NCBI GenBank assembly: GCA_039801225.1
Contig: JBDRUH010000001.1
Location: forward strand, 1,767-65,766
Direction of reading: 5' to 3'
DNA: 64,000 nucleotides
Source of the DNA: a candidate division WOR-3 bacterium
GTDB taxonomy: Bacteria > Hydrothermota > Tepidihabitantia > Tepidihabitantales > Tepidihabitantaceae
Every line of letters begins with the position of its first letter. Positions within the stretch are counted from its first letter, which is position 1. A program made the position numbers and the translations under genes. The notes beneath the pieces are model-generated. The model had not been told where the DNA came from. It saw only the letters and a program-made list of their open reading frames with translations, and searched no databases. Below are positions 2,954 to 51,308 of the stretch, one piece after another.

Positions 2954-3526
2954 ATGGTAAAGAAGACCGTTTTAGTCTTAGAAGGGAGTCCGCGAAAGGG
3001 CAATACAACAGTTGTAACCGACTGGGTGCTTGCCGGTCTGGGGAAAAAGGGGGTTGACATTAAACGGCTGAGGGTATGTGAGTTGCATATCAATGGCTGT
3101 CAGGAATGTTTTGGCTGTTTTGATTATAAAACCCGAGCCGGCTGTCAGCAGGATGATGATATGCTAGAGATATATCAACTTCTGGTGGACAGCGATTTGA
3201 CCATTTGGACAAGTCCGATTTTTTGCTGGGGTGTTACCAGCCAGTTGAAGGCGGTAGTGGACCGCTGCTTCGCCCTTTTGAATGGTGAGAATCTTTTGAA
3301 AGGACAGAAGTGGGCGGTTATTCTTACCGCCGGTGGCGACCATTTTGATGGTGCTGATTTAGCGGTGGAGATGTTCCGAAGACTATCAGAGTTTGGCAAG
3401 ATGAAATATCTCGGTCAACTGGTCATCCCCAACTGTCCTGAGCCAAAACTCCTTAAAAGAAACCGGCAGGTTTTTCTGGAGGCGAAGCGGTTTGGCAAAG
3501 AACTGCGCCAGGAGATTTTCACTTAA
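2954..3526 (+). CDS. Flavodoxin-like NAD(P)H-dependent FMN reductase family protein
   Basis: LVLEGSPRKGNTT, then a Cys cluster (CQECFGCFDYKTRAGC) and DMLEIY/TSPIFCWGV match the FMN_red (PF03358)-type flavoproteins. RBS aaaggag upstream. Confidence 0.75.
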   Translation: MVKKTVLVLEGSPRKGNTTVVTDWVLAGLGKKGVDIKRLRVCELHINGCQECFGCFDYKTRAGCQQDDDMLEIYQLLVDSDLTIWTSPIFCWGVTSQLKAVVDRCFALLNGENLLKGQKWAVILTAGGDHFDGADLAVEMFRRLSEFGKMKYLGQLVIPNCPEPKLLKRNRQVFLEAKRFGKELRQEIFT

Positions 3527-9871: not shown

Positions 9872-12022
9872 TCACTCCAAAAGGAGCAGTTTATGCACCC
9901 CGTTAACCCCTTTTCCCAATAACCGGATGAAATATAATCCTGCTGGCACTCGCCTTCCCGAATTGTCAGTAAAGTCCCAAACCAAACCAGACCCGGATGG
10001 CTTTAATGCCCGCACCTTTTCCCCGGTAATATCATAAATCTCCAAGACAACCAGCGGAGAAAGACTGAGGACAACCGGTGCCGAACCTATCCTCCAAACT
10101 GTCGGCTGTCGGCTGGCGGCTGGCGGCCATCGGCCGTCATCTGACGGGTTCTCCTCCACCCCTGGGTTGAACCTGATCCAGAATGACCAGGATGTGCTAA
10201 AATCGCCCCAGCCAAAACGATTATAGCCTTTGCAAAACCATTTGTAAGACTTACCATAGGTAAAAAGGTTGTCGGGAAGAGAACAACAAGGGACAGTTGT
10301 TACCGCCCGCCAGATGGTGTCGCCCGCACCATAAACAACCCGGAAACAGAAACTGTCCAAATCATTACGGGTGGTATCAACTAATAGGACAACCGGCGGC
10401 GAGAAAAGCTGCTGACCGTTTGGCGGTGCGAGATGTTTCGGTGGCAGCGCACCACGAATCAACTTAAAACAGCCAAAAGTCCCATCTGCCGACATCAGGG
10501 TTCCATTCCGATACTGTCGCAAGCGAAGGCGGAAGGAGTCGCCAGAAGGAAGTTCTGGGCTGACGAACCAGTTATAAACACCGGTATCAGGCACACTATC
10601 AAGAAAATTCCAGGTCCTGCCGGCATTGAAGGAAATATCTATTGCTACCCAGTCTGCCGGATTGCCAAAGTTGTCCCATCGCACCAAAACGGTATCTCCA
10701 ATAAATAGTGTCTCGCCCTTGCCCAGTGAGTTGTAAAAGGTGTCTCCGAGTGGGTAAAGAAGTTCCAGTTTATATGCATCCGCACCATTGGGATGGGGCG
10801 ACCCGATATGGGAGTTGTCTTCACCGGAATAGTGCCACCACTCCGCCGGTTTCCACCAGGTGTTGTGGACATACAGGTCCTTTTCCGGTGTGCGATAGCC
10901 ATAAGCGGCTAAAGAGTGAATCGCCCAGGTTGCTGACCAGACAAAGGCATAACCATCGTCAATTTCATTAACAATCCTCTCCCAGGCCCAGTCGTTTGCC
11001 GGCGTGCCTAGGTCCTGAATAACCTCAAAGGAGTAGCCATTGTCATAGGCAACCAGCCAGAGCCCTGGGGCGACCGCCGGGATACTCGTTGCCCCTCGGG
11101 TTGTGTCGGTGCTCATCCTTATGGCGCACTCCCGCTGGACATTGGGAATCTGCTTGTCCCATTCACCTTCCACCATATCCCAGCGCATCCAGAACCAGTC
11201 AACCAACCGACCATAATTCTGGCTCTTATCAATATATCCCATAACCATTGCTGCCGCAGTGGGTGTGCAGCCATAACTCCAGTCGTAAAATGGCGCCTTG
11301 TCCGCATCGGGGACAAATACGGCGGTAAACTTACTAAAGTCCCGATTCAATGCCTCTGCCCACTCCTGTTGGTGAATCTCCGCCGCAAGTCTCTTTTCCT
11401 CATTGTCCAGGTTTGCCTTTTTCTTTAAATCGGCGATGTGGTTAACAAATTCTTCCCGGGAACAAAAGGTCTGTTCAAAATGAGGGGTGAATATTACCCG
11501 CTCTTTAGAGGAATTGGCAAACTCAAGAAAGGTGACCGGCATAATAAAATAAATCCGGCAGAGGTAAACATCTTCACCAAGAACAGCCTTCGCCCGTTTC
11601 AGACCTTCGGGGACCACCGCGTAGAACTCGGAAGTACCATAGCCATAACAGACAATTGGCGGTCGGTCGTAACGGGCAGAAATTAGTAGATGGCTGTATT
11701 TTGAACGCCATTTGGTCAAATCGGTATTGGCGGTCAGGTTTTCCTTTTCGGCAATAATGTCTTTAACCACTTCATCATAATCGGGAAATTCCTTGCCATC
11801 GGTGCGAAAGTGAAACATATAACCGGCGGTCTGACCTTCCTCGTCCACATAAGGAATAATTGTTCCGAGTCGGCATCCCGGCCATTCCGCCTGTGCCTTA
11901 CGCAGAGCAATCTCTTTAATAGTCTCAAATGGCACCGCATTGGGTGGTGTTGAGCCCACTTCCGGCAGAGAAATTGCCCAGAGTGCGCCTAAACTAAAAA
12001 CCAATATTAAAAACAGCCTCAT
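9872..12022 (-). CDS. T9SS-secreted protein with a C39-like/papain-like cysteine peptidase-like domain
   Basis: N-terminal signal peptide. The C-terminus (YDITGEKVRALKPSG...GLYFIRLLGKGVNGVHKLLLLE) matches the type-A T9SS C-terminal sorting domain. Internal Cys motif DWSYGCTPTAAAMVMGY resembles the catalytic Cys motif of C39-type peptidases. The domain call is tentative. Confidence 0.65.
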   Translation of the reverse strand: MRLFLILVFSLGALWAISLPEVGSTPPNAVPFETIKEIALRKAQAEWPGCRLGTIIPYVDEEGQTAGYMFHFRTDGKEFPDYDEVVKDIIAEKENLTANTDLTKWRSKYSHLLISARYDRPPIVCYGYGTSEFYAVVPEGLKRAKAVLGEDVYLCRIYFIMPVTFLEFANSSKERVIFTPHFEQTFCSREEFVNHIADLKKKANLDNEEKRLAAEIHQQEWAEALNRDFSKFTAVFVPDADKAPFYDWSYGCTPTAAAMVMGYIDKSQNYGRLVDWFWMRWDMVEGEWDKQIPNVQRECAIRMSTDTTRGATSIPAVAPGLWLVAYDNGYSFEVIQDLGTPANDWAWERIVNEIDDGYAFVWSATWAIHSLAAYGYRTPEKDLYVHNTWWKPAEWWHYSGEDNSHIGSPHPNGADAYKLELLYPLGDTFYNSLGKGETLFIGDTVLVRWDNFGNPADWVAIDISFNAGRTWNFLDSVPDTGVYNWFVSPELPSGDSFRLRLRQYRNGTLMSADGTFGCFKLIRGALPPKHLAPPNGQQLFSPPVVLLVDTTRNDLDSFCFRVVYGAGDTIWRAVTTVPCCSLPDNLFTYGKSYKWFCKGYNRFGWGDFSTSWSFWIRFNPGVEENPSDDGRWPPAASRQPTVWRIGSAPVVLSLSPLVVLEIYDITGEKVRALKPSGSGLVWDFTDNSGRRVPAGLYFIRLLGKGVNGVHKLLLLE

Positions 12023-14592: not shown

Positions 14593-15079
14593 TCTCTGTC
14601 TGTCTCAACAGGTCGCGTAAGGCTGCGGCTCGCTCATAGTCTTCTTCTTTTATCGCCGCATCCAACTCCGCGCGCAGCCGTTGCACCTCAAGCCGTTCTT
14701 GCGCCTTCTTCCTTCCTTTATTCGGCTCCTTACCTGTGTGACGAATTGAACCGTGGATTCGCCGGATTACCTGCTTTAACTCCTGTTCAAATGCGTTATA
14801 ACAATTCGCACACCCTAACCTGCCCCGGCGCTTAAACTCAGAGAAACTTAACCCGCAGGATGGACAGGTAAAATTTCGGCTTTCGGCTCTCGGCTCTCGG
14901 CTATCGGCCTCTTCTTTCTTGGGTGCGGTCTTCTCCACGCCGGAAAGCCCCCTTTTCCTGCCGCAGTCGGCGCAAATCATTAGTTCCACCGCATTCCCTT
15001 CCTTATCCAACACCTTCACCAAAACTATTCCTGGGTTCTTCCCGCAAAAATCACACAGTTTCATTGTGTAGTTCTCCAT
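14576..15079 (-). CDS. mcsA: McsA-like activator of protein arginine kinase (zinc-finger plus UVR domain)
   Basis: Two CxxC pairs (CDFCGKN...CADCGRK; CPSCG...CANCY) and a C-terminal UvrB/C-like motif (EDYERAAALRDLLRQ). Overlaps mcsB by 17 nt. Start may be the MKLCDF Met at 15064. Confidence 0.7.
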   Translation of the reverse strand: MENYTMKLCDFCGKNPGIVLVKVLDKEGNAVELMICADCGRKRGLSGVEKTAPKKEEADSREPRAESRNFTCPSCGLSFSEFKRRGRLGCANCYNAFEQELKQVIRRIHGSIRHTGKEPNKGRKKAQERLEVQRLRAELDAAIKEEDYERAAALRDLLRQTENEVDT

Positions 15080-29343: not shown

Positions 29344-29437
29344 GCAAACCTAAAGGTAGTCGCACAGCGACCTGCCCGAATCGGGCAGAGTGCCCTACAT
29401 ATACCCTTTTTGGCTTTTGGATTTTAGATTTTGGATT
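29344..29437. repeat. Intergenic member of the nested palindromic repeat family (core gcaaacctaaaggtagtcgcacagcgacctgc ... gcagagtgccctacat, followed by a ttttggc-type microsatellite)
   Basis: A shared 32-nt core with 36974-37005 (exact). 13-nt termini gcaaacctaaagg and gccctacat shared with 32356-32380. The internal palindrome ctgcccgaatcgggcag. Confidence 0.6.
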
Positions 29438-29446
29438 ATATCTCCT

Positions 29447-29785
29447 TTACCAGCGTCGGTTGGAATAGCCTCCACCGCTACGACCTCCGCGGTGAGAACC
29501 ACGAGTGCCACGACCTCGGACACCACCTCTACTTTCAATTCGCTCCCGGGCTTCAGCCACTTTCAACGCCCGGTCCTCCCAGTTATAGCCATTCAGATTG
29601 GAAATCGCTGATTGAGCCCCCTGGTCATTAGCCATCTCTATAAAAGCGAACCCCCGCGGACGGTTGGTAAACCGGTCGGTAACGATATTTACTGAAACTA
29701 CCTCACCCTGCTGACTGAACAAGTCACGCAGTTGATCTTCTGTTGCGCTGAATGGTAAATTACCTACAAACAAGCGCCTTGACAT
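29447..29785 (-). CDS. RNA-binding protein (RRM domain with RGG-rich tail)
   Basis: RNP1/RNP2: LFVGNLPF and RGFAFIEM. C-terminal GGVRGRGTRGSHRGGRSGGG. Confidence 0.85.
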   Translation of the reverse strand: MSRRLFVGNLPFSATEDQLRDLFSQQGEVVSVNIVTDRFTNRPRGFAFIEMANDQGAQSAISNLNGYNWEDRALKVAEARERIESRGGVRGRGTRGSHRGGRSGGGYSNRRW

Positions 29786-31985: not shown

Positions 31986-33585
31986 GGTCTGTCTTAGATA
32001 TTATAGTATCTTTCTCAAACCTTTCATCCGGTAAAGGATGATCCTGATTATAGTGGAGACCGCGGGACTCAAGACGGCGCTGGGCGCAGGCAACAATTAG
32101 CCGGGCGGTAAAAAGGAGATTGCGGAGTTCTAAACTATGAATTTCGCAAGCACTGGACACTTGGGATTGAGAACTGAGCACTGATAGTTCTGCCGCCGCT
32201 TTTTTCAGCCCGGCATCACTCCGGACGATTCCCGCATAACGCCACATTATCTCCCGCAGACGCCTTGGCAAATGTGGAAGTGCGAATGCGAAATGCGGAA
32301 ATTCTGAATTCCGAATTCCGAATTCTTTTGGCTTTTGGCTTTTGCCTTTACTTTTTGCAAACCTAAAGGTTTGCCCTACATTTTCCTGTGCCGCTATCGC
32401 CGCCCTTTCGGCAAATACCAGCGCCTCAAGAAGCGAATTGGAGGCGAGGCGATTTGCGCCATGAAGTCCAGTGCAGGCACACTCACCTGCGGCAAAAAGC
32501 CCTTTTATCGTAGACTCTCCCCAGGAGTTAACCAAAACTCCACCGCAGACATAATGAGCTGCTGGAACAACCGGAATCGGCTCCCGGGTAATATCTATTC
32601 CCAAATCAAGGCAGGTTTTGTAAATATTGGGAAACCGCTCCTTTAATCTTTTTGGCGGTATCGGCGAGCAATCCAACAGCACAAATTCCTCCCCGCGCCG
32701 GGCAATTTCAGCAGCAATTGCCCGAGCAACTACATCCCTTGGTGCCAAAGAGCCATCAGGATGGTAGGCGTTCATAAAAGGCTTACCATCCCTGGTCCGC
32801 AAAATTGCCCCTTCCCCCCTAACTGCCTCAGAAATAAGAAACGCCCGGTCGTCTATCTTTCTCCCGTAGAGCGTGGTTGGATGAAACTGGATAAACTCCA
32901 TATTGGCGATTTTTGCTCCTGCCCGGAACGCCATAGCAATTCCATCGCCAGTGGCAATCATAGGATTTGTGGTATGAAGATAGACCTGACCAATTCCTCC
33001 TGTTGCAAGAAGGCATACCCGGGAATGGACAAGGACCATCTCTTTGGTGGATTTATTTAAAACAATCACCCCCCAGTATTCGCCGTTTTCATTTAAAACA
33101 ATATCAACAGCAAAATGCTCCTCCCAGATTTTTACATTTGGTTGAGAACTCACCACCTGAAGCAGACCTCGTTCAATTTCAAACCCGGTGGCATCCTGAG
33201 CGTGAACAATCCGCCGCCGCCTGTGTCCGCCCTCCTGACCGAGGTCAAACTGCGGTTCACCTTTGACATCAACCGTGGCAGAAAACTTTATTCCTAACGC
33301 CCATAACTCCCGGACGAGGCGTGGACCAGATTCGGTAACCAGTTTCACAATATCCTTGTGGGCAAGACCCGCGCCAACCCTAATCGTATCCTCGTAATGA
33401 ATCTGGGGATTATCATCTTCTGCGACTGCAGCGGCGATCCCGCCCTGAGCATAGTTGGTATTTGACTCCGGGCTCTCCTTCTTTGTCACAATAAGGACAT
33501 TCCCTTTCTCTTTTAATTTATAAGCAAACCAGAGTCCGGCGATTCCGGAACCAAGAATTAGATAGTCAACCGTGATTTGATCCAC
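31975..33585 (-). CDS. nadB: L-aspartate oxidase
   Basis: N-terminal FAD motif LILGSGIAGL. FAAGECACTGLHGANRLASNSLLEALVF. C-terminal ESRGLHYNQDHP. Contains an in-frame repeat-derived insert (see finding at 32281-32385). Confidence 0.85.
   Translation of the reverse strand: MDQITVDYLILGSGIAGLWFAYKLKEKGNVLIVTKKESPESNTNYAQGGIAAAVAEDDNPQIHYEDTIRVGAGLAHKDIVKLVTESGPRLVRELWALGIKFSATVDVKGEPQFDLGQEGGHRRRRIVHAQDATGFEIERGLLQVVSSQPNVKIWEEHFAVDIVLNENGEYWGVIVLNKSTKEMVLVHSRVCLLATGGIGQVYLHTTNPMIATGDGIAMAFRAGAKIANMEFIQFHPTTLYGRKIDDRAFLISEAVRGEGAILRTRDGKPFMNAYHPDGSLAPRDVVARAIAAEIARRGEEFVLLDCSPIPPKRLKERFPNIYKTCLDLGIDITREPIPVVPAAHYVCGGVLVNSWGESTIKGLFAAGECACTGLHGANRLASNSLLEALVFAERAAIAAQENVGQTFRFAKSKGKSQKPKEFGIRNSEFPHFAFALPHLPRRLREIMWRYAGIVRSDAGLKKAAAELSVLSSQSQVSSACEIHSLELRNLLFTARLIVACAQRRLESRGLHYNQDHPLPDERFEKDTIISKTDLEI
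32281..32385. repeat. Member of the nested repeat family located in-frame inside nadB (gaattccg tandem, ttttggc microsatellite, gcaaacctaaagg-tttgccctacat core)
   Basis: Shares gcaaacctaaagg and gccctacat with 29344-29400 and 36974-37112. Encodes ...TFRFAKSKGKSQKPKEFGIRNSEFPHFAFALP within the NadB C-terminal linker. Confidence 0.55.
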
Positions 33586-33596
33586 TCTCCAGTTCG

Positions 33597-34280
33597 TTAC
33601 AGTCGGTATGAGACCTTCACGCCTGGCTGATTTTCTGCCGGTTTAAATTCAAGCCGACTACTCAACTTAGCCTCGGGCAGGAAAAACAGACAATCTAAAA
33701 AACTTACCAGCCGGTTCAAGACCAGTGCGGCAGCAAGAAAACTGGCGTTCATCCCGGCAGTCCGTGCGGCTCTTCTCGTGCGCCAGTAGGAATAAATGCG
33801 GATTGAGTCTGAACTCCAGTCCCACTGGGCGCTACCAAAATACCCCCGCGCCTGGTAATATCGGCGCTGGGCATCCGGGTCATTAGGATACAGTTCTCTT
33901 GCCTCCCTTCGGATATCTTCATTGAACTGTTCGGCATTATCGTAAACCTCCAGCGCCCGGTAATAACGGCGGTCGGTTATGGTAATGTCCGCACTGGCAT
34001 ATCTTTTGGCGATAAGCCGGGCGTCTTGCTCCCGGCTCTTCTGTAACCAAGCAAACCCTGCCCAACCCGAAAAGAAAATGCCATCCATCCATAGCATCAC
34101 CTCTCCCCGTTTTTTCACCCCGCTAAGCAACTGCCCACTACCAGGTAGAACTATAGAACTCAGCATCACAACACCTCGCCCCAGTTTCTTGGTTTTGAGT
34201 TCCTGGTTTTGAGTTTTAGAAAATATGAATTCTGAAATAGGGGAATTGCTGACTAATAAGACCGCCAGAACCAAACTCAT
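33597..34280 (-). CDS. Hypothetical membrane protein (DUF5683-like)
   Basis: SIVLPGSGQLLSGVKKRGEVMLWMDGIFFSGWAGFAW resembles the DUF5683 motif. Weak. Confidence 0.4.
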   Translation of the reverse strand: MSLVLAVLLVSNSPISEFIFSKTQNQELKTKKLGRGVVMLSSIVLPGSGQLLSGVKKRGEVMLWMDGIFFSGWAGFAWLQKSREQDARLIAKRYASADITITDRRYYRALEVYDNAEQFNEDIRREARELYPNDPDAQRRYYQARGYFGSAQWDWSSDSIRIYSYWRTRRAARTAGMNASFLAAALVLNRLVSFLDCLFFLPEAKLSSRLEFKPAENQPGVKVSYRL

Positions 34281-34335: not shown

Positions 34336-37203
34336 TCATTCAATAATCAATTTCTTTCCGGTTATCATGCTTTTATAGCGGACAGTTAAAAAATAGACTC
34401 CAGGAATGAGCCCATCCAGGGCAACCTCCTCTTCAGCTACTCTTAGTTGATATCTCTTTACCTCTCGCCCCGATACATCATAAATACCGATATAAGCACC
34501 GGCTTGGGCAGCAACCTTGATACTTCCCTTTCGCGAGAGAATTGTGGCGCACATTTGGCTTTTGGCTTTTGGCTTTTGGCTTTTAACTTCCTCCACTCCA
34601 ATCAGATTCCAGTCGGTAAGTTTGGCATAAATGTCCCATCCCCGGTGCCGACGGTTGTCAGTCCAGGTAAAAGCAATTCTTTCCCTGTTAGCAGCAACGC
34701 TCTGACCAACAGTCCAGTGGACATTTTTCGGGAATATATTGGGTTCATTAATTTTCTTATTGTTGCTGACTCTTGTTCCATCTTCTCGGAACCGCTGGCA
34801 GTAAATCTGCGGATTGCCATAACCTTCCCTTTCATCGTTAAACATAACCACCAGCCTGCCCGAAGGGTCAAAGGAACAGGTTGGTGAGTAGGCGTCGTAA
34901 TCAAACCCTAAGGGTTCGTTAATCCGTTCATTCTCGCCCAGTGGCTTACCGATTGAGTCCAACCACTGCAGATAAACATTATAGGTCTCGTTTCTGGTAT
35001 CCTCCCAAGCGATCGCTATCCTCCTCTCATCCGATATGGCACAGGCTGGATAACCCTGATAAACGGCACTAGCGTCAGTATTCACCCGAATATTCCCGCC
35101 TATTCTTGAACCATCAGGACGGAATAACTGACAGTAAATATTATAATCACCATCCCGTAAGTCCATCCAACTTACAACCCATTCTCCAGAAGAGTTCATC
35201 GCTACGCTGGCATAACAACCTTCTGCGGCAGGGTCACTAACTAAAAACTCTGGACCCTGGGGATTGCCACTTTCGTCATAAAGCCGGGCAAATATCTGCG
35301 CCTTCCCTTCTCGATAATCAGTCCAGACAACCACCGCCCGATTGAAAGAATCAAGGGCACAATAGGAATACCACTGAAAGCCACCACTCGCATCAGAATT
35401 CACCCGAAAGTTGCCACCGCTCGGCTCACCTTCTCTATCAAAAAACTGACCGTATATATCCGCTTCATCACCTCTGATCTCGGTCCAGGTAACAAGAAAC
35501 CGTCCTTTGCCACCAGCAACACTGGGGTAATAATGGAGCGCACCAGGCAGTTCCTCATTTACTTTAATATTATCGCCTACCTCTTTTCCTAAAGAGTCAA
35601 ACACCGCGAAGTAGATGTCCGATTCACCATTTCGCTCATCATCCCAGGCGATGCCAATATTGCCCTGGCGTTCCATTCCGATTGATGATGTCCGCTGATG
35701 AGCACTAGCGCTATCATCATTCACCTTGAAATTACTGCCAATCGGTGTCCCATCCCGAGCGAGCCTTTGACAGTAGATATCCAAATTCCCTGCCCGGGCG
35801 TCAGCCCAGGCAACCCAGTAACCACCATCCAAAGTGGCTGCCACACTTGGTGAATTTTGGCTGGCTCCCCCGATGTCGGTATTTATTTTAAACTCATCTC
35901 CTATCCGATTGCCCTGGATATCAAACCGCTGGGCATAAATGTCCTCCTGTCCATCCCGACAATCGGTCCAGACAATTATAAACTCACCCAATTGATTTAT
36001 CGCCACATCACTGCCGAACTGGTCGGCATCGCCGTTATCGTTATTAACCCGGAAGTTGTCGCCTATCGGCTCGCCCGAACTTGAATAAATCTGGGCATAA
36101 ATATCCCCCTGACCGCGGCGATGGTCATCCCAGGAGATGACAAACTCACCGCTCGGAGAAACACCGATTGACGGTGACCACTGAGTGCTGTCATCGGTTG
36201 TAACCTGAATGTTATTACCCAACCTGGTGCCATCAAACCGAAATCGTTGAAAGAATATGTTCCAGTCCCAGGCGTTGTTTCCCCTTCCATCCATCCATAC
36301 AACCACAAACCTGCCCGAGTCATCACTTCCTACCGAAGGTTCATACTGATTGGCATAACCAATCGGGTCATCATTTACCCGAAAATTACCGCCTTGGGGT
36401 GAGCCATCGGGGTTGAAAAATTGAGCATAGATATCGCCAGTAAGCCCAAATCTTCGGTCATCCCAGGCAACAAGTGCCGTGCCATCCGCTCCTATGGAAA
36501 CACTGGAAATACTCTGGTCTCCTGCTACCCCAGAATCACTCACCCGGAAATTATCACCAATTCTTGTTCCGTCAGCATCAAACCATTGAGCGAACACATC
36601 CGAGTTGCCAATCTCTCGCCGGTCCTCCCAGGTGAAGAGAAACTTACCATCCAAACCGATAGCACCTGCCGGGTCGCCCTGCCAGCCCATCGTTATATCG
36701 GTATTAACCCGCTCATTTGTTCCGATAGGATGACCGCTGGAGTCAAACCGCTGAAACCATATATCAGCATCACCATCCCGAAACTCATACCAGGCGATGA
36801 CAAATGAACCATCCGAACCTATAGCAATTGCCGGACCGGATTGAGGACAACCACCGGTTATATCATCATTACATAGAAAGTCACCCCGGATGACACTATC
36901 TCTGTCACCCTTATAGGACAAGGCTTTAGCCAACAAAAATGTAGGGCAAGGCTTTAGCCTTGCTTTTCCGAATGCAAACCTAAAGGTAGTCGCACAGCGA
37001 CCTGCGTGCTCCACACAAGGGAGCCCAAAGACAGATGACCGAAGACCGTCTCCGGTCTCCCGTCTCCTGTCTTCTGTTGAGCGGGGTTTGGGGCACGCAG
37101 AGTGCCCTACATTACTCGTGGGGATATTAGCCAAGTTGTAGGACAACGCTTTAGCCCTACCTTCTCCCAAAATCATAAATCCCAATATGAGAATTAAATT
37201 CAT
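34336..37203 (-). CDS. T9SS-secreted protein with ~14 tandem ~48-aa repeats (W.D.R.G..DIY.QRFD..G...G.NFRVN.D motif), family unknown
   Basis: N-terminal signal peptide MNLILILGFMILG. C-terminal type-A sorting domain (IGIYDVSGREVKRY...IPGVYFLTVRYKS...KKLIIE). Repeat periodicity read directly from the translation. The N-terminal ~90 aa and a C-terminal KSQKPKAKSQ linker are encoded by repeat-family DNA. Confidence 0.7.
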   Translation of the reverse strand: MNLILILGFMILGEGRAKALSYNLANIPTSNVGHSACPKPRSTEDRRRETGDGLRSSVFGLPCVEHAGRCATTFRFAFGKARLKPCPTFLLAKALSYKGDRDSVIRGDFLCNDDITGGCPQSGPAIAIGSDGSFVIAWYEFRDGDADIWFQRFDSSGHPIGTNERVNTDITMGWQGDPAGAIGLDGKFLFTWEDRREIGNSDVFAQWFDADGTRIGDNFRVSDSGVAGDQSISSVSIGADGTALVAWDDRRFGLTGDIYAQFFNPDGSPQGGNFRVNDDPIGYANQYEPSVGSDDSGRFVVVWMDGRGNNAWDWNIFFQRFRFDGTRLGNNIQVTTDDSTQWSPSIGVSPSGEFVISWDDHRRGQGDIYAQIYSSSGEPIGDNFRVNNDNGDADQFGSDVAINQLGEFIIVWTDCRDGQEDIYAQRFDIQGNRIGDEFKINTDIGGASQNSPSVAATLDGGYWVAWADARAGNLDIYCQRLARDGTPIGSNFKVNDDSASAHQRTSSIGMERQGNIGIAWDDERNGESDIYFAVFDSLGKEVGDNIKVNEELPGALHYYPSVAGGKGRFLVTWTEIRGDEADIYGQFFDREGEPSGGNFRVNSDASGGFQWYSYCALDSFNRAVVVWTDYREGKAQIFARLYDESGNPQGPEFLVSDPAAEGCYASVAMNSSGEWVVSWMDLRDGDYNIYCQLFRPDGSRIGGNIRVNTDASAVYQGYPACAISDERRIAIAWEDTRNETYNVYLQWLDSIGKPLGENERINEPLGFDYDAYSPTCSFDPSGRLVVMFNDEREGYGNPQIYCQRFREDGTRVSNNKKINEPNIFPKNVHWTVGQSVAANRERIAFTWTDNRRHRGWDIYAKLTDWNLIGVEEVKSQKPKAKSQMCATILSRKGSIKVAAQAGAYIGIYDVSGREVKRYQLRVAEEEVALDGLIPGVYFLTVRYKSMITGKKLIIE
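36938..37112. repeat. MITE-like composite repeat with inverted termini atgtagggca ... tgccctacat, carrying a nested copy of a second repeat (gatgaccgaagaccgtct...)
   Basis: 10-nt perfect terminal inverted repeat. Internal 32-nt core identical to 29344-29375. An 18-nt segment identical to 23916-23933. Flanked by three ggctttagcc motifs. Lies inside the 5' coding region of the gene above. Confidence 0.55.
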
Positions 37204-48637: not shown

Positions 48638-48832
48638 ATGGTAAGTATTACTGTCAAAGAAGGCGAACCTTACGAGAGTTTTATCCGTCGGTTTCGCCGG
48701 GCGTGTGAACAGGCGGGTATTCTGCGTGAGGTGAAGCGTCGCGAGTTTTACGAGAAACCGAGTGAGCGACGCAAGCGTAAACTGGCCGAAGCCCGCCGCC
48801 GCATCTATCGGAAGCAGCTATTGGAAAGATAA
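48638..48832 (+). CDS. rpsU: 30S ribosomal protein S21
   Basis: MVSITVKEGEPYESFIRRFRRACEQAGILREVKRREFYEKPSERRKRK is a near-consensus S21. Confidence 0.9.
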   Translation: MVSITVKEGEPYESFIRRFRRACEQAGILREVKRREFYEKPSERRKRKLAEARRRIYRKQLLER

Positions 48833-48839
48833 CCGAAGG

Positions 48840-48863
48840 AAAGGCAAATCTCAAAAGCCAAAT
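48840..48863. repeat. Second copy of the 24-nt dispersed repeat aaaggcaaatctcaaaagccaaat (rpsU-mutS2 intergenic)
   Basis: Exact match to 24137-24160. Confidence 0.6.
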
Positions 48864-48935
48864 GCAAAATTGGCGCGGTACACTCGTCCATTTTGGTCGG
48901 ACAGAAATTTTTGTCTGTCATCACGAGAGGTAGCA

Positions 48936-51308
48936 GTGGATAAAGAAACACTGAACGCCCTTGACTTTCCTCGCCTTAAGGAGATATTAGTGAATTTTTG
49001 CACCACCGAGTTGGGCAGAGAAAAAGCCCAACAGTTGATGCCCAATTTAACCCCAGCAGAAGCAAAACTGGAACTGGACCGGCTGGAGGAGGTCTTAGAA
49101 CTAAACCAGGAACCACCGCTGAGCGGCATTGTTGACATCAGAACTTTAATTACCCAGGCACGGGTAGGAAGGGTATTAACCCCTGGAGAACTTCTGAAGG
49201 TTTATGCCACCTGTACCGGTCTGCGGGCAAGCGAGGAGTTTTTTCGACGTTACAAAAAAGACCAAAGAGCGCTGAGAGGAAAAAAAGAGCCGACCGCCAA
49301 CGGCCGACAGCCGAACGAAGAAAGTGACCTTGGGTCTTTAGTAAATGATATTGTCTCATTCCCGGAACTGGAACAGGAGATTAAACGGGTGATTGACGAA
49401 TCCGGAATGGTGCGCGACACCGCCAGCCCGAGGTTAGCAGAAGTTCGGAGTGAGTTAAAAGAACGGCGCAACCAACTGGTGGCACAATTGGAAAGAATGA
49501 TTGAAACCAATCCAGATTGGTTTGAAGGACCGGTGATGGTTCGCCGGGAGCGGTTTGTTCTGCCGGTAAAGTTACCCGAAAAGAACCGGGTCCCGGGAGT
49601 GGTTCATTCGGTATCGGACACCGGTCAAACGGTGTTTATTGAGCCGTTAACCACCATCCCGGAGCAGAACCGACTCCAAGAATTGCGCGACGCCGAGAAG
49701 GAGGAGATAAACCGACTTCTGCGCGACCTGTCGGCAAAAGTGGCCACCTTTGAGACAGAGCTAAGCCGAGCATTGGACCGGGTTGCCGCTCTGGACCTGC
49801 TTATTGCCAAACGCCGGCTGGCGATAAAATTCAACTGCCATAAACCAATCATTACCGATGAAGGAAAAATAGAATTAGTCCAGGCAAGACACCCGCTCCT
49901 TCTCCTCCATAAACAGGAGGTCGTTCCCTTAGACCTTCGTTTCCCTGATGGGGTAAATGTTGTCATTGTTTCTGGACCGAATGCCGGCGGAAAGACGGTG
50001 GTTCTAAAAACCTTGGGGCTTTGCAGTCTATTGCTCAAAGCCGGGATGTTTGTCCCGGCAGCCTCAGGAACAAAGTTACCTTTCTTTGAGAAGATTTTTG
50101 CCGATATCGGTGACGAGCAGTCGCTTGAGGCGGATATGTCCTCATTTACCGCCCATCTGAAACGGCTAAAAGAAATTCTCCTTGAGGCGGATGGACGAAG
50201 TTTAGTTTTAATTGACGAAATTGGTGCCGCCACCGCCCCTGAAGAAGGTGCCGCGCTGGCGATCGCGGTCTTGGAAGAGTTACGGAATCGGCAAATTTCC
50301 ACTGTTGCCACCACCCATTTCAACACCCTTAAACTCTTTGCCCGGAATGAGCCCGGGATGGTGAATGCGGCGATGGAGTTTCAAAACCGACCGACCTATC
50401 GGCTGATAATGGGAGTGCCGGGAGAGTCAAGCGCGTTTGAAATCGCCGAAAGTCTGGGTTTCCCAGCTCAGCTATTGGCGCGGGCAAAGATGCGGCTGGG
50501 CAAAGAGTGGCTTGACTTAAGTGCCAAATTAAGAACGCTTGACAAAAAATTACAGGAGGTGGAAAAGGAACGAGGCGAATTAAGGACGGAGAGAAGCCGT
50601 GTTGAACAACTGGCAAAGGAATATCAGACGAAATTAGGGGAATTTGAAATTTGGCGAAAGGAGCAGATGGCTCACCTCCACGAGGAGGAGGAGCGCTTCC
50701 TTAAGGAAACTCGCCGCCAGGTGGAAAATCTGATTCGGGAATTGAGGGAAGAAAAGGCAAACCATAAAAGTATCGTCCGGGCAAAGCGGTATATTGAGGA
50801 GCGACTGAGTCAATTGAGTAAGGAACCAATCAGCCAACAGCCGGCTATGACCGGGGAAAGTCTGGCGATAGGCGATGTGGTGGAGTCAAGATTATTTCAC
50901 CGCCAGGGTCAGATAATAGAGTTGAAAGGAAACCGGGCGGTGGTGGCGTTTGGCAATATCAAAACGGAGTTGGACATCCGCGACCTAAACCCAGCCGTCA
51001 GCCCTCAGCCGACAGCCAACCGCGGACAGCCGAATGAAGAACAATATGAGTTTATCCCCAGGCTGAATGTCCGGGGAATGACCAAAGAGGATGCGGTGAA
51101 TGCGCTTAACCGCTTTCTTGAGGAGGCAACCATCGCCAGAGTAAATGAGTTATCAATTCTTCATGGAAAAGGAACCGGTGCCCTGCGCTCAATCATCTGG
51201 CGTCGGTTGAAACAGGATAAACGGGTTATGGAGGTCAGATTTGCCGAGCCGGCGGAAGGCGGAATGGGTGTAACATTGGTCAGGCTGAGGTTAAGTAGTA
51301 ATGATTAA
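48936..51308 (+). CDS. mutS2: Endonuclease MutS2 (MutS domain plus C-terminal Smr)
   Basis: Start set at in-frame GTG 48936 (VDKETLNALDFPRLKEIL). The track ORF from 48762 would overlap rpsU. Walker A SGPNAGGKT. C-terminal Smr (LNVRGMTKEDAVNALNRFL...LHGKGTGALR). Confidence 0.85.
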   Translation: MDKETLNALDFPRLKEILVNFCTTELGREKAQQLMPNLTPAEAKLELDRLEEVLELNQEPPLSGIVDIRTLITQARVGRVLTPGELLKVYATCTGLRASEEFFRRYKKDQRALRGKKEPTANGRQPNEESDLGSLVNDIVSFPELEQEIKRVIDESGMVRDTASPRLAEVRSELKERRNQLVAQLERMIETNPDWFEGPVMVRRERFVLPVKLPEKNRVPGVVHSVSDTGQTVFIEPLTTIPEQNRLQELRDAEKEEINRLLRDLSAKVATFETELSRALDRVAALDLLIAKRRLAIKFNCHKPIITDEGKIELVQARHPLLLLHKQEVVPLDLRFPDGVNVVIVSGPNAGGKTVVLKTLGLCSLLLKAGMFVPAASGTKLPFFEKIFADIGDEQSLEADMSSFTAHLKRLKEILLEADGRSLVLIDEIGAATAPEEGAALAIAVLEELRNRQISTVATTHFNTLKLFARNEPGMVNAAMEFQNRPTYRLIMGVPGESSAFEIAESLGFPAQLLARAKMRLGKEWLDLSAKLRTLDKKLQEVEKERGELRTERSRVEQLAKEYQTKLGEFEIWRKEQMAHLHEEEERFLKETRRQVENLIRELREEKANHKSIVRAKRYIEERLSQLSKEPISQQPAMTGESLAIGDVVESRLFHRQGQIIELKGNRAVVAFGNIKTELDIRDLNPAVSPQPTANRGQPNEEQYEFIPRLNVRGMTKEDAVNALNRFLEEATIARVNELSILHGKGTGALRSIIWRRLKQDKRVMEVRFAEPAEGGMGVTLVRLRLSSND

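Follow-up and report, generated by a model that had tools for sequence, protein, structure and literature searches.

Among described systems in which a heptanucleotide tract alters gene expression, the closest precedent is neuO of Escherichia coli K1 (phage CUS-3), in which a 5' AAGACTC tract lies within the coding sequence and a full-length product is made only in the right frame class, the gene being ON if the unit number is divisible by 3. This tract has 3-53 units across genomes (about 20 being the commonest number, and 21 in the assayed strain MS7163), and heterogeneity within cultures has been measured (PMC13001214). The hmw1A and hmw2A genes of Haemophilus influenzae also combine a 7-nt unit with a surface adhesin; their tracts are located in promoters, contain 13-38 copies, and grade transcription without a frame shift, and one strain carries an intragenic (AATTTTG)14 tract and a frameshift (PMC2651432). 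A perfect tract of the heptamer AAAAGCC is described here in the gene for a predicted type IX secretion system (T9SS) cargo protein, which is located in a 64,000-nt stretch of a candidate division WOR-3 genome (contig JBDRUH010000001.1, positions 1,767 to 65,766; this whole stretch is referred to as the window).

Heptanucleotides are the commonest class of simple sequence repeats (SSRs) with 5-11-nt units in most prokaryotic genomes surveyed (Mrazek 2007, as cited in PMC4679880 and PMC4692102), and a polymerase-related slippage preference was proposed as the cause (Mrazek 2007, as cited in PMC4679880). According to Rehm et al., heptanucleotides are over-represented in Xanthomonas and Nostoc, four units are preferred, and Calothrix has three tandem heptanucleotides (PMC4692102). 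In Porphyromonas gingivalis, the linker before the T9SS C-terminal domain is unstructured and is cleaved by PorU independently of its sequence, the attachment of anionic lipopolysaccharide (A-LPS) to RgpB depends on linker length, and T9SS export is blocked if the sorting domain has lost C-terminal residues (PMC4804311). A repeat-encoded linker is not described for known T9SS cargo, whereas the linker of the WOR-3 protein is encoded by repeats.

The tract and the linker of the cargo protein

The AAAAGCC tract is best read as a member of a genome-wide heptanucleotide repeat family of this lineage, which is tolerated and frame-compatible in a disordered, hypervariable linker and is translated as a hydrophilic spacer (probability about 0.7). 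Tandem Repeats Finder (TRF) located a perfect period-7 array at 34554-34584 on the minus strand (4.4 copies, 100% matches, score 62). No other perfect array in the window reached three copies at any period between 5 and 12, and 0.0 were expected from 30 dinucleotide shuffles. On the coding strand, the array reads GTT (AAAAGCC)x4 AAATGTG CGCC, the fifth unit (AAATGTG) being degenerate, and it is translated as V-KSQKPKAKSQM-C, that is, residues 873-885 of a 955-aa open reading frame (ORF), with KSQKPKAKSQM at aa 874-884. The unit is free of stop codons in all frames, and its present orientation gives a hydrophilic K/S/Q/P/A peptide. An earlier note on this DNA had pointed out a heptamer tract (AAAAGCC x4) just upstream of a T9SS sorting domain, which was confirmed by TRF, translation, and profile matches. 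The outer span that it gave (34541-34592) indeed holds the array; the 28-nt ggcttttggcttttggcttttggctttt, on the other hand, is located at 34557-34584 and not at 34551-34578, a slip of 6 nt.

The 955-aa ORF (34336-37203, minus strand) was predicted to encode a T9SS cargo protein with tandem beta-propellers. Its C-terminus (aa 886-955; 34339-34548, minus strand) scored above the curated cut-offs of the type A sorting-domain models, with 27.4 bits against 27 for PF18962 and 27.9 bits against 23 for TIGR04183. An AlphaFold2 (AF2) model built from 93 homologs, with a mean predicted local distance difference test score (pLDDT) of 86, contained a long tandem beta-propeller body at aa 104-863 and a seven-strand beta-sandwich at 887-954 (pLDDT about 90). 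The pLDDT fell below 50 in three stretches only (aa 1-3, 10-101, and 871-884), and the third stretch, flanked by the confident folds of the propeller and the sorting domain, is the segment encoded by the repeat. Cargo of the RgpB type (T9SS type A) similarly has a seven-strand beta-sandwich C-terminal domain behind a disordered linker (PMC4804311), but the first strand of the domain is ATIL or PTVV in the WOR-3 clade instead of YPNP, and the profile match starts at position 17-22. The first-strand motif is degenerate in the whole clade, and YPNP is kept in distant homologs only. Because this degeneracy is clade-wide and the AF2 domain has all seven strands, the partial profile match does not reflect repeat damage; the possibility that the array overwrote the first strand of the sorting domain was rejected, as a match from position 17-22 only is found throughout the clade. 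Programmed ribosomal frameshifting at the tract was also rejected, since CAAAAGC is not a slippery heptamer of the form X XXY YYZ. A Foldseek match of the cargo to PorZ (5m11) had a low TM-score (0.29-0.34) and was read only as a generic double propeller with a C-terminal domain.

The inter-domain linker (aa 866-885; 34549-34608, minus strand) extends from the last propeller strand to the first strand of the sorting domain. Among 120 homologs, the sequence between a conserved DW(N/D)L motif and this first strand was hypervariable, and the columns encoded by the array (aa 874-884) were among the least conserved of the alignment of 93 sequences, with a top-residue frequency of 0.13-0.24. A linker encoded by heptamers was found in the window and its closest relative only, and the other 118 of the 120 homologs had unrelated linker sequences. 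The spacer from W865 to G912 is 46 aa long in the window protein, against a median of 47 (range 41-59) in 93 homologs. As judged from these alignments, the array occupies the linker without lengthening it. The repeat-encoded peptide would thus form part of the segment in which PorU-type processing would occur, if the properties of P. gingivalis cargo may be transferred to WOR-3. Arrays of this kind presumably arise and homogenise by replication slippage or local conversion. The tract probably persisted because the linker is structurally unconstrained and hypervariable, the unit is stop-free, and the resulting hydrophilic spacer has the usual linker length, and selection would keep the unit number compatible with the frame. 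A change of one unit would abolish export, which would make the tract a sequence liability rather than a demonstrated regulatory device.

Period-7 arrays in the window and in related genomes

Period 7 predominates among the tandem repeats of the window. In a period scan that counted sub-windows with at least 18 of 21 self-matches and used 20 shuffles as a control, six strict arrays were detected at period 7 and none at periods 4-6, 8-13, or 15; three matches at period 14 correspond to 2 x 7, and the shuffles yielded none at any period. Similarly, 14 of the 32 TRF rows had period 7. The 64 kb contained about 17 arrays of five unit families, namely AAAAGCC/CTTTTGG (at 24134, 24242, 25090, 29408, 32325, 34554, and 48836), CAGCCGA/TCGGCTG (7675, 10099, 14876, 49289, 50992, and 57635), GACCGAA with CCGTCTC (23912 and 37030), AATTCCG (32300), and AAATCCT (18504). 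About 11 of these arrays were located inside ORFs, in frame, at linkers or termini, although intergenic DNA was still array-enriched compared with the fraction of the window that it makes up. Units located in ORFs are stop-free in every frame, and their orientation mostly gives hydrophilic peptides (KSQKPKA, QPTADSR), whereas AAATCCT, which includes TAA, is located between genes only. Such a pattern would be anticipated for arrays that form at all sites and persist where they do no harm.

Several of the in-frame arrays were found in housekeeping genes. In nadB, two abutting arrays (AATTCCG x3.7 and CTTTTGG x3.6 on the plus strand; 32300-32349, coding on the minus strand) encode KGKSQKPKEFGIRNSEF in a linker between the FAD-binding and C-terminal domains (Pfam matches at 7-385 and 441-530). 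MutS2 (ORF 48762-51308, plus strand) contained a CAGCCGA-family array with six copies, in frame between the MSSS (704-742) and Smr (768-843) domains (50992-51033, plus strand), and two further arrays at 48836-48876 and 49289-49317, the former possibly 5' of the true start. Other in-frame arrays were located in a 167-aa McsA-like protein with a UVR motif (TCGGCTC x4.7; 14876-14908, minus strand), at the C-terminus of HflX, and at the N-terminus of a lipoprotein. The AAAAGCC unit recurs in frame in nadB (32325-32349) and between genes (29408-29437), as the earlier note had claimed; the intergenic array (TTTTGGC/TTTTGGA x4.3) lies 10 nt beyond the stop of a gene for an RRM protein (29447-29785, minus strand) and adjoins a hairpin element (29344-29400). 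An ON/OFF switch would make no sense in nadB, mutS2, or hflX, and because equivalent arrays are present in these genes, where switching is implausible, the copy in the cargo gene needs no special explanation.

Comparison with relatives indicated that these arrays belong to one lineage. The closest ortholog of the cargo gene was found in the Logan assembly of SRR8371833 (L001; 81% protein identity, same gene order), and another ortholog (L002) had 70% identity. At the same site and in the same frame, L001 carries GTG AAAAGTG (AAAAGTC)x3 AAAAGTG, five units that encode VKSEKSKVKSQK; its peptide KSEKSKVKSQK is rich in K and S and has the same length as KSQKPKAKSQM of the window. In L002 and every more distant homolog, the linker DNA is unrelated and lacks heptamers. 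The window and L001 are therefore the two array-bearing lineages, and the unit number (five) and the frame are the same in both. Between them, an identical C>T change is found in three adjacent units, while each array is internally homogeneous. Under independent point mutation at the divergence of the flanks (about 25% pairwise), the joint probability of these changes is about 1.5e-7. The concerted change indicates that the tract was homogenised after the window and L001 separated, by slippage, unequal exchange, or conversion. Strict period-7 arrays numbered six in the 64-kb window and one in the 6.7 kb of L001, whereas 106 kb of syntenic DNA of five further WOR-3 relatives contained none. On the basis of these sequences, the proliferation of the arrays is recent and lineage-specific.

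In-frame gains relative to orthologs were also observed. The 227-aa ORF downstream of the cargo gene has a 33-nt insertion that is lacking in L001 and L002 and that holds the period-14/7 array CTCAAAACCAGGAA near the N-terminus (34186-34215, minus strand). NadB of the window has 13 residues more than the L002 ortholog, and the cargo gene gained about 150-180 nt in frame behind the putative signal-peptide region. No match to the exact 3'-junction pattern of the tract was detected in JGI metagenome contigs, and look-ups of the exact 955-aa and 865-aa products, made for a strain-level comparison of copy numbers, returned no record. A protein search with the C-terminal 156 aa retrieved only fragments at 44-49% identity. 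No length variant of the tract was detected in these collections, which contained no close strains.

Arrays of the same unit occur in other phyla. When species-representative genomes were scanned for exact matches to (AAAAGYC)x3-AAAAG, at least 120 loci (L003-L122) were identified. Among the loci listed, 56 were cyanobacterial, mostly from filamentous genera (Nostoc, Scytonema, Aerosakkonema, Okeania, Calothrix, and others), 28 were from Bacteroidota, and 12 were from bacteria of the candidate phyla radiation (CPR). About one third of the arrays among the matches listed lay in long stop-free stretches, and their copy numbers were 3 (74 arrays), 4 (36), 5 (17), and 6 (8), followed by a few long ones. 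Since copy numbers elsewhere are mostly 3-6, an array of four AAAAGCC units is unremarkable. The window arrays therefore resemble the heptanucleotide long SSRs and the short tandemly repeated repetitive (STRR) sequences of cyanobacteria in the 7-nt unit, the short arrays (typically 2-6 copies), the many dispersed copies, the several units per genome, and the specific over-representation of period 7; AAAAG(C/T)C itself is arrayed in many filamentous cyanobacteria. They differ in that the host is an uncultivated WOR-3 bacterium, with proliferation in the window and L001 and not in the five other relatives, and in that most of them are located in ORFs and in frame, whereas the STRR, TAACTGA (Beggiatoaceae), and GGGNATC (Xanthomonas, Nostoc) families are mainly intergenic. 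The host was identified as candidate division WOR-3, and not as a cyanobacterium, from the annotation of an identical protein (P0001) and from synteny with WOR-3 metagenome-assembled genomes (MAGs). Cyanobacterial contamination was rejected, as the genes that contain the arrays have a conserved order in WOR-3 MAGs. The HIP1 sequence GCGATCGC was barely enriched in the window (three matches against 0.6 expected). Among the matches listed, AAAAG(C/T)C arrays were also present in Acidobacteriota and in a Candidatus Parabeggiatoa MAG, and some genomes, such as Aerosakkonema sp. BLCC-F183, supplied many loci.

Proposed phase variation and other explanations

The earlier note had proposed that the tract is a phase-variation switch between a secreted and a non-secreted protein. 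Its frameshift logic was borne out by simulation: gains or losses of one or two units gave products of 903-919 aa that lacked the sorting domain and ended in short out-of-frame tails, whereas gains or losses of three units kept the frame. A true contingency locus, in which slipped-strand mispairing would alter the unit number at an appreciable rate and toggle a surface form exported by the T9SS and a truncated periplasmic form, would behave accordingly, and the tract has the expected perfect tandem units, of a length not divisible by 3, inside an ORF. Several observations speak for such a locus and against a merely tolerated repeat. The tract is perfect (100% matches, four identical units), unlike most of the other arrays in the window; the cargo is a surface-destined protein, the usual class of contingency genes; and an array likewise precedes the weak sorting-domain match of another putative T9SS cargo (716 aa). 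Furthermore, the concerted change between the window and L001 implies turnover. As far as the two sequences show, the tract is mutationally active on an evolutionary time scale, and its units were probably gained and lost by way of out-of-frame lengths, except if turnover took place in three-unit steps or by conversion. The neuO tract and the intragenic hmw1A tract provide precedents, and the blocked export of P. gingivalis cargo that lacks C-terminal residues fits the proposed OFF state. However, the tract has only four perfect units, compared with 13-38 in hmw and typically about 20 (range 3-53) in neuO, and is too short to be hypermutable by comparison with these proven cases. It also lies in the 3' part of the gene, not in the 5' part as in neuO, and an OFF state would still cost the synthesis of about 900 residues. 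A fixed copy number in related genomes was one of the two observations named by the earlier note as speaking against a switch, and L001, the sole relative with an array, does have the same five units in the same frame. Moreover, equivalent arrays are present in nadB, mutS2, hflX, the McsA-like gene, and intergenic DNA, so that they are not specific to surface genes. The proposed switch is thus not supported, and a true contingency locus is considered unlikely. Distinctly unlikely, too, is a combination in which the narrow lineage recently underwent a burst of heptamer arrays and hairpin mini-elements in inter-domain linkers of housekeeping as well as secreted proteins and the perfect tract acts as a low-frequency ON/OFF switch of surface display; in this case, arrays would be written in frame by an active lineage-specific process, either a peculiarity of polymerase or repair or a mobile element of very small size. 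If it were a true switch, the tract would represent the first contingency locus to be proposed in an uncultivated WOR-3 bacterium and the first that acts by removal of a T9SS sorting signal.

Two further explanations concern the origin of the array and the function of its peptide. The arrays may be footprints of a small mobile or templated element, delivered or seeded together with hairpin mini-elements, and the tract would then be an old in-frame insertion. Arrays adjoin or sit inside hairpins of the form GCAAACCTAAAGGT...CCCTACAT at 29344-29437, 32300-32381, and 36936-37112, the insertions in the 227-aa ORF (33 nt), nadB, and the cargo 5' end are clear and in frame, and the burst of arrays is lineage-specific. 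This explanation is nevertheless quite improbable for the tract itself: no hairpin element, terminal repeat, or target duplication was found beside 34554-34584, the linker is no longer than in array-free homologs, and the order of arrays and hairpins varies from site to site. Alternatively, the lysine-rich KSQKPKA repeat may be retained as a functional peptide, which might, for instance, interact with anionic LPS or give the linker an adequate length for sortase processing. The K/S-rich peptide of equal length in L001 and the dependence of A-LPS attachment of RgpB on linker length are in line with such a function, but 118 of the 120 homologs manage with unrelated linker sequences, and AAAAGCC-type DNA gives similar peptides in cytoplasmic NadB and MutS2, which argues for an origin of the repeat peptide at the DNA level. 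A selected peptide is therefore highly improbable. The reading of the tract as a tolerated member of a lineage-specific repeat family carries a caution: where heptanucleotide repeats abound genome-wide, a perfect, frameshift-capable tract in a surface gene is insufficient to call phase variation. In-frame heptamer arrays and hairpin mini-elements in the disordered linkers of housekeeping proteins of one WOR-3 lineage, and not of its relatives, may also be of interest to the fields of repeat dynamics and linker evolution.

Gene model, hairpin elements, and further arrays

The start codon of the cargo gene (ATG at 37203) overlaps the stop codon of the gene upstream (ATGA), and this arrangement is identical in L001 and L002. 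The match suggests that the 955-aa gene model is probably right and that the public annotation truncates the gene: the identical protein P0001 is recorded for a candidate division WOR-3 MAG, and its NCBI model comprises only the last 865 aa, with an internal start and without a signal peptide. The 955-aa ORF begins with MNLILILGFMILG at the conserved overlap, followed by about 60-90 repeat-encoded residues. These include a composite insertion of hairpin mini-elements and GACCGAA/CCGTCTC heptamer arrays (36936-37112, minus strand), which is in frame and encodes disordered aa 31-90, within the low-pLDDT stretch at 10-101. The cargo ORF remains open across about 180 nt of inserted repeat elements. 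In the L001 ortholog, the signal-peptide core LLAGWLLVFAG is encoded by a GCTTTTG-type array (3314-3342 of L001), a hydrophobic reading of the same unit, which is followed by a different array with the unit AGTTCGT (3393-3418); the N-terminal repeats thus differ between the two lineages.

The gene order around the cargo gene is common to six other WOR-3-type contigs and consists of dCMP deaminase, an M6-like T9SS protein, the cargo, a protein of about 220 aa, nadB, an integrase-family gene, and an AIR-synthase-family (AIRS) gene. The neighbour of the cargo gene resembles the T9SS-dependent M6-like family, with a score below the cut-off of that model. A 716-aa C39-like protein (ORF 9872-12022, minus strand) contains an in-frame CTGTCGG-family array at aa 629-642 (10099-10138, minus strand), directly before a weak TIGR04183 match (E = 0.002 on a C-terminal fragment, below the cut-off). 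On this similarity, it is a putative second T9SS cargo, in which the junction that holds the tract of the 955-aa cargo likewise contains an array.

The dispersed hairpin mini-element GCAAACCTAAAGGTTTGCCCTACAT was located at 32357-32381 (plus strand), 36939-36963 (minus strand), 29344-29400 (plus strand), and 36974-37112 (plus strand). In a second copy, GCAAGGCTAAAGCCTTGCCCTACAT, the CTAAAG loop and the CCCTACAT tail are preserved, and the stem shows compensatory changes. The longer copies are interrupted by nested hairpins and heptamer arrays, and in two of them a 5' part of 32 nt is identical. One of the copies forms an in-frame part of nadB, and another, flagged as terminator-like, is located inside the 5' end of the cargo ORF. 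The mini-elements may be likened to the Rickettsia palindromic elements or to the small dispersed repeats of cyanobacteria. Neither JGI metagenomes nor any of the retrieved loci, those of the relatives included, contained the core of the element, and an Rfam search of the window yielded four tRNAs only, with nothing at arrays or hairpin elements.

A 1.3-kb region without long ORFs (23909-25187) contains at least four heptamer arrays. It also holds one copy of a 46-nt direct repeat (24000-24045), and the second copy, which is 80% identical, is located at 25234-25279, just inside the next ORF. The C-terminus of a small HicB-like ORF (approximately 24930-25170) is encoded by a heptamer array.

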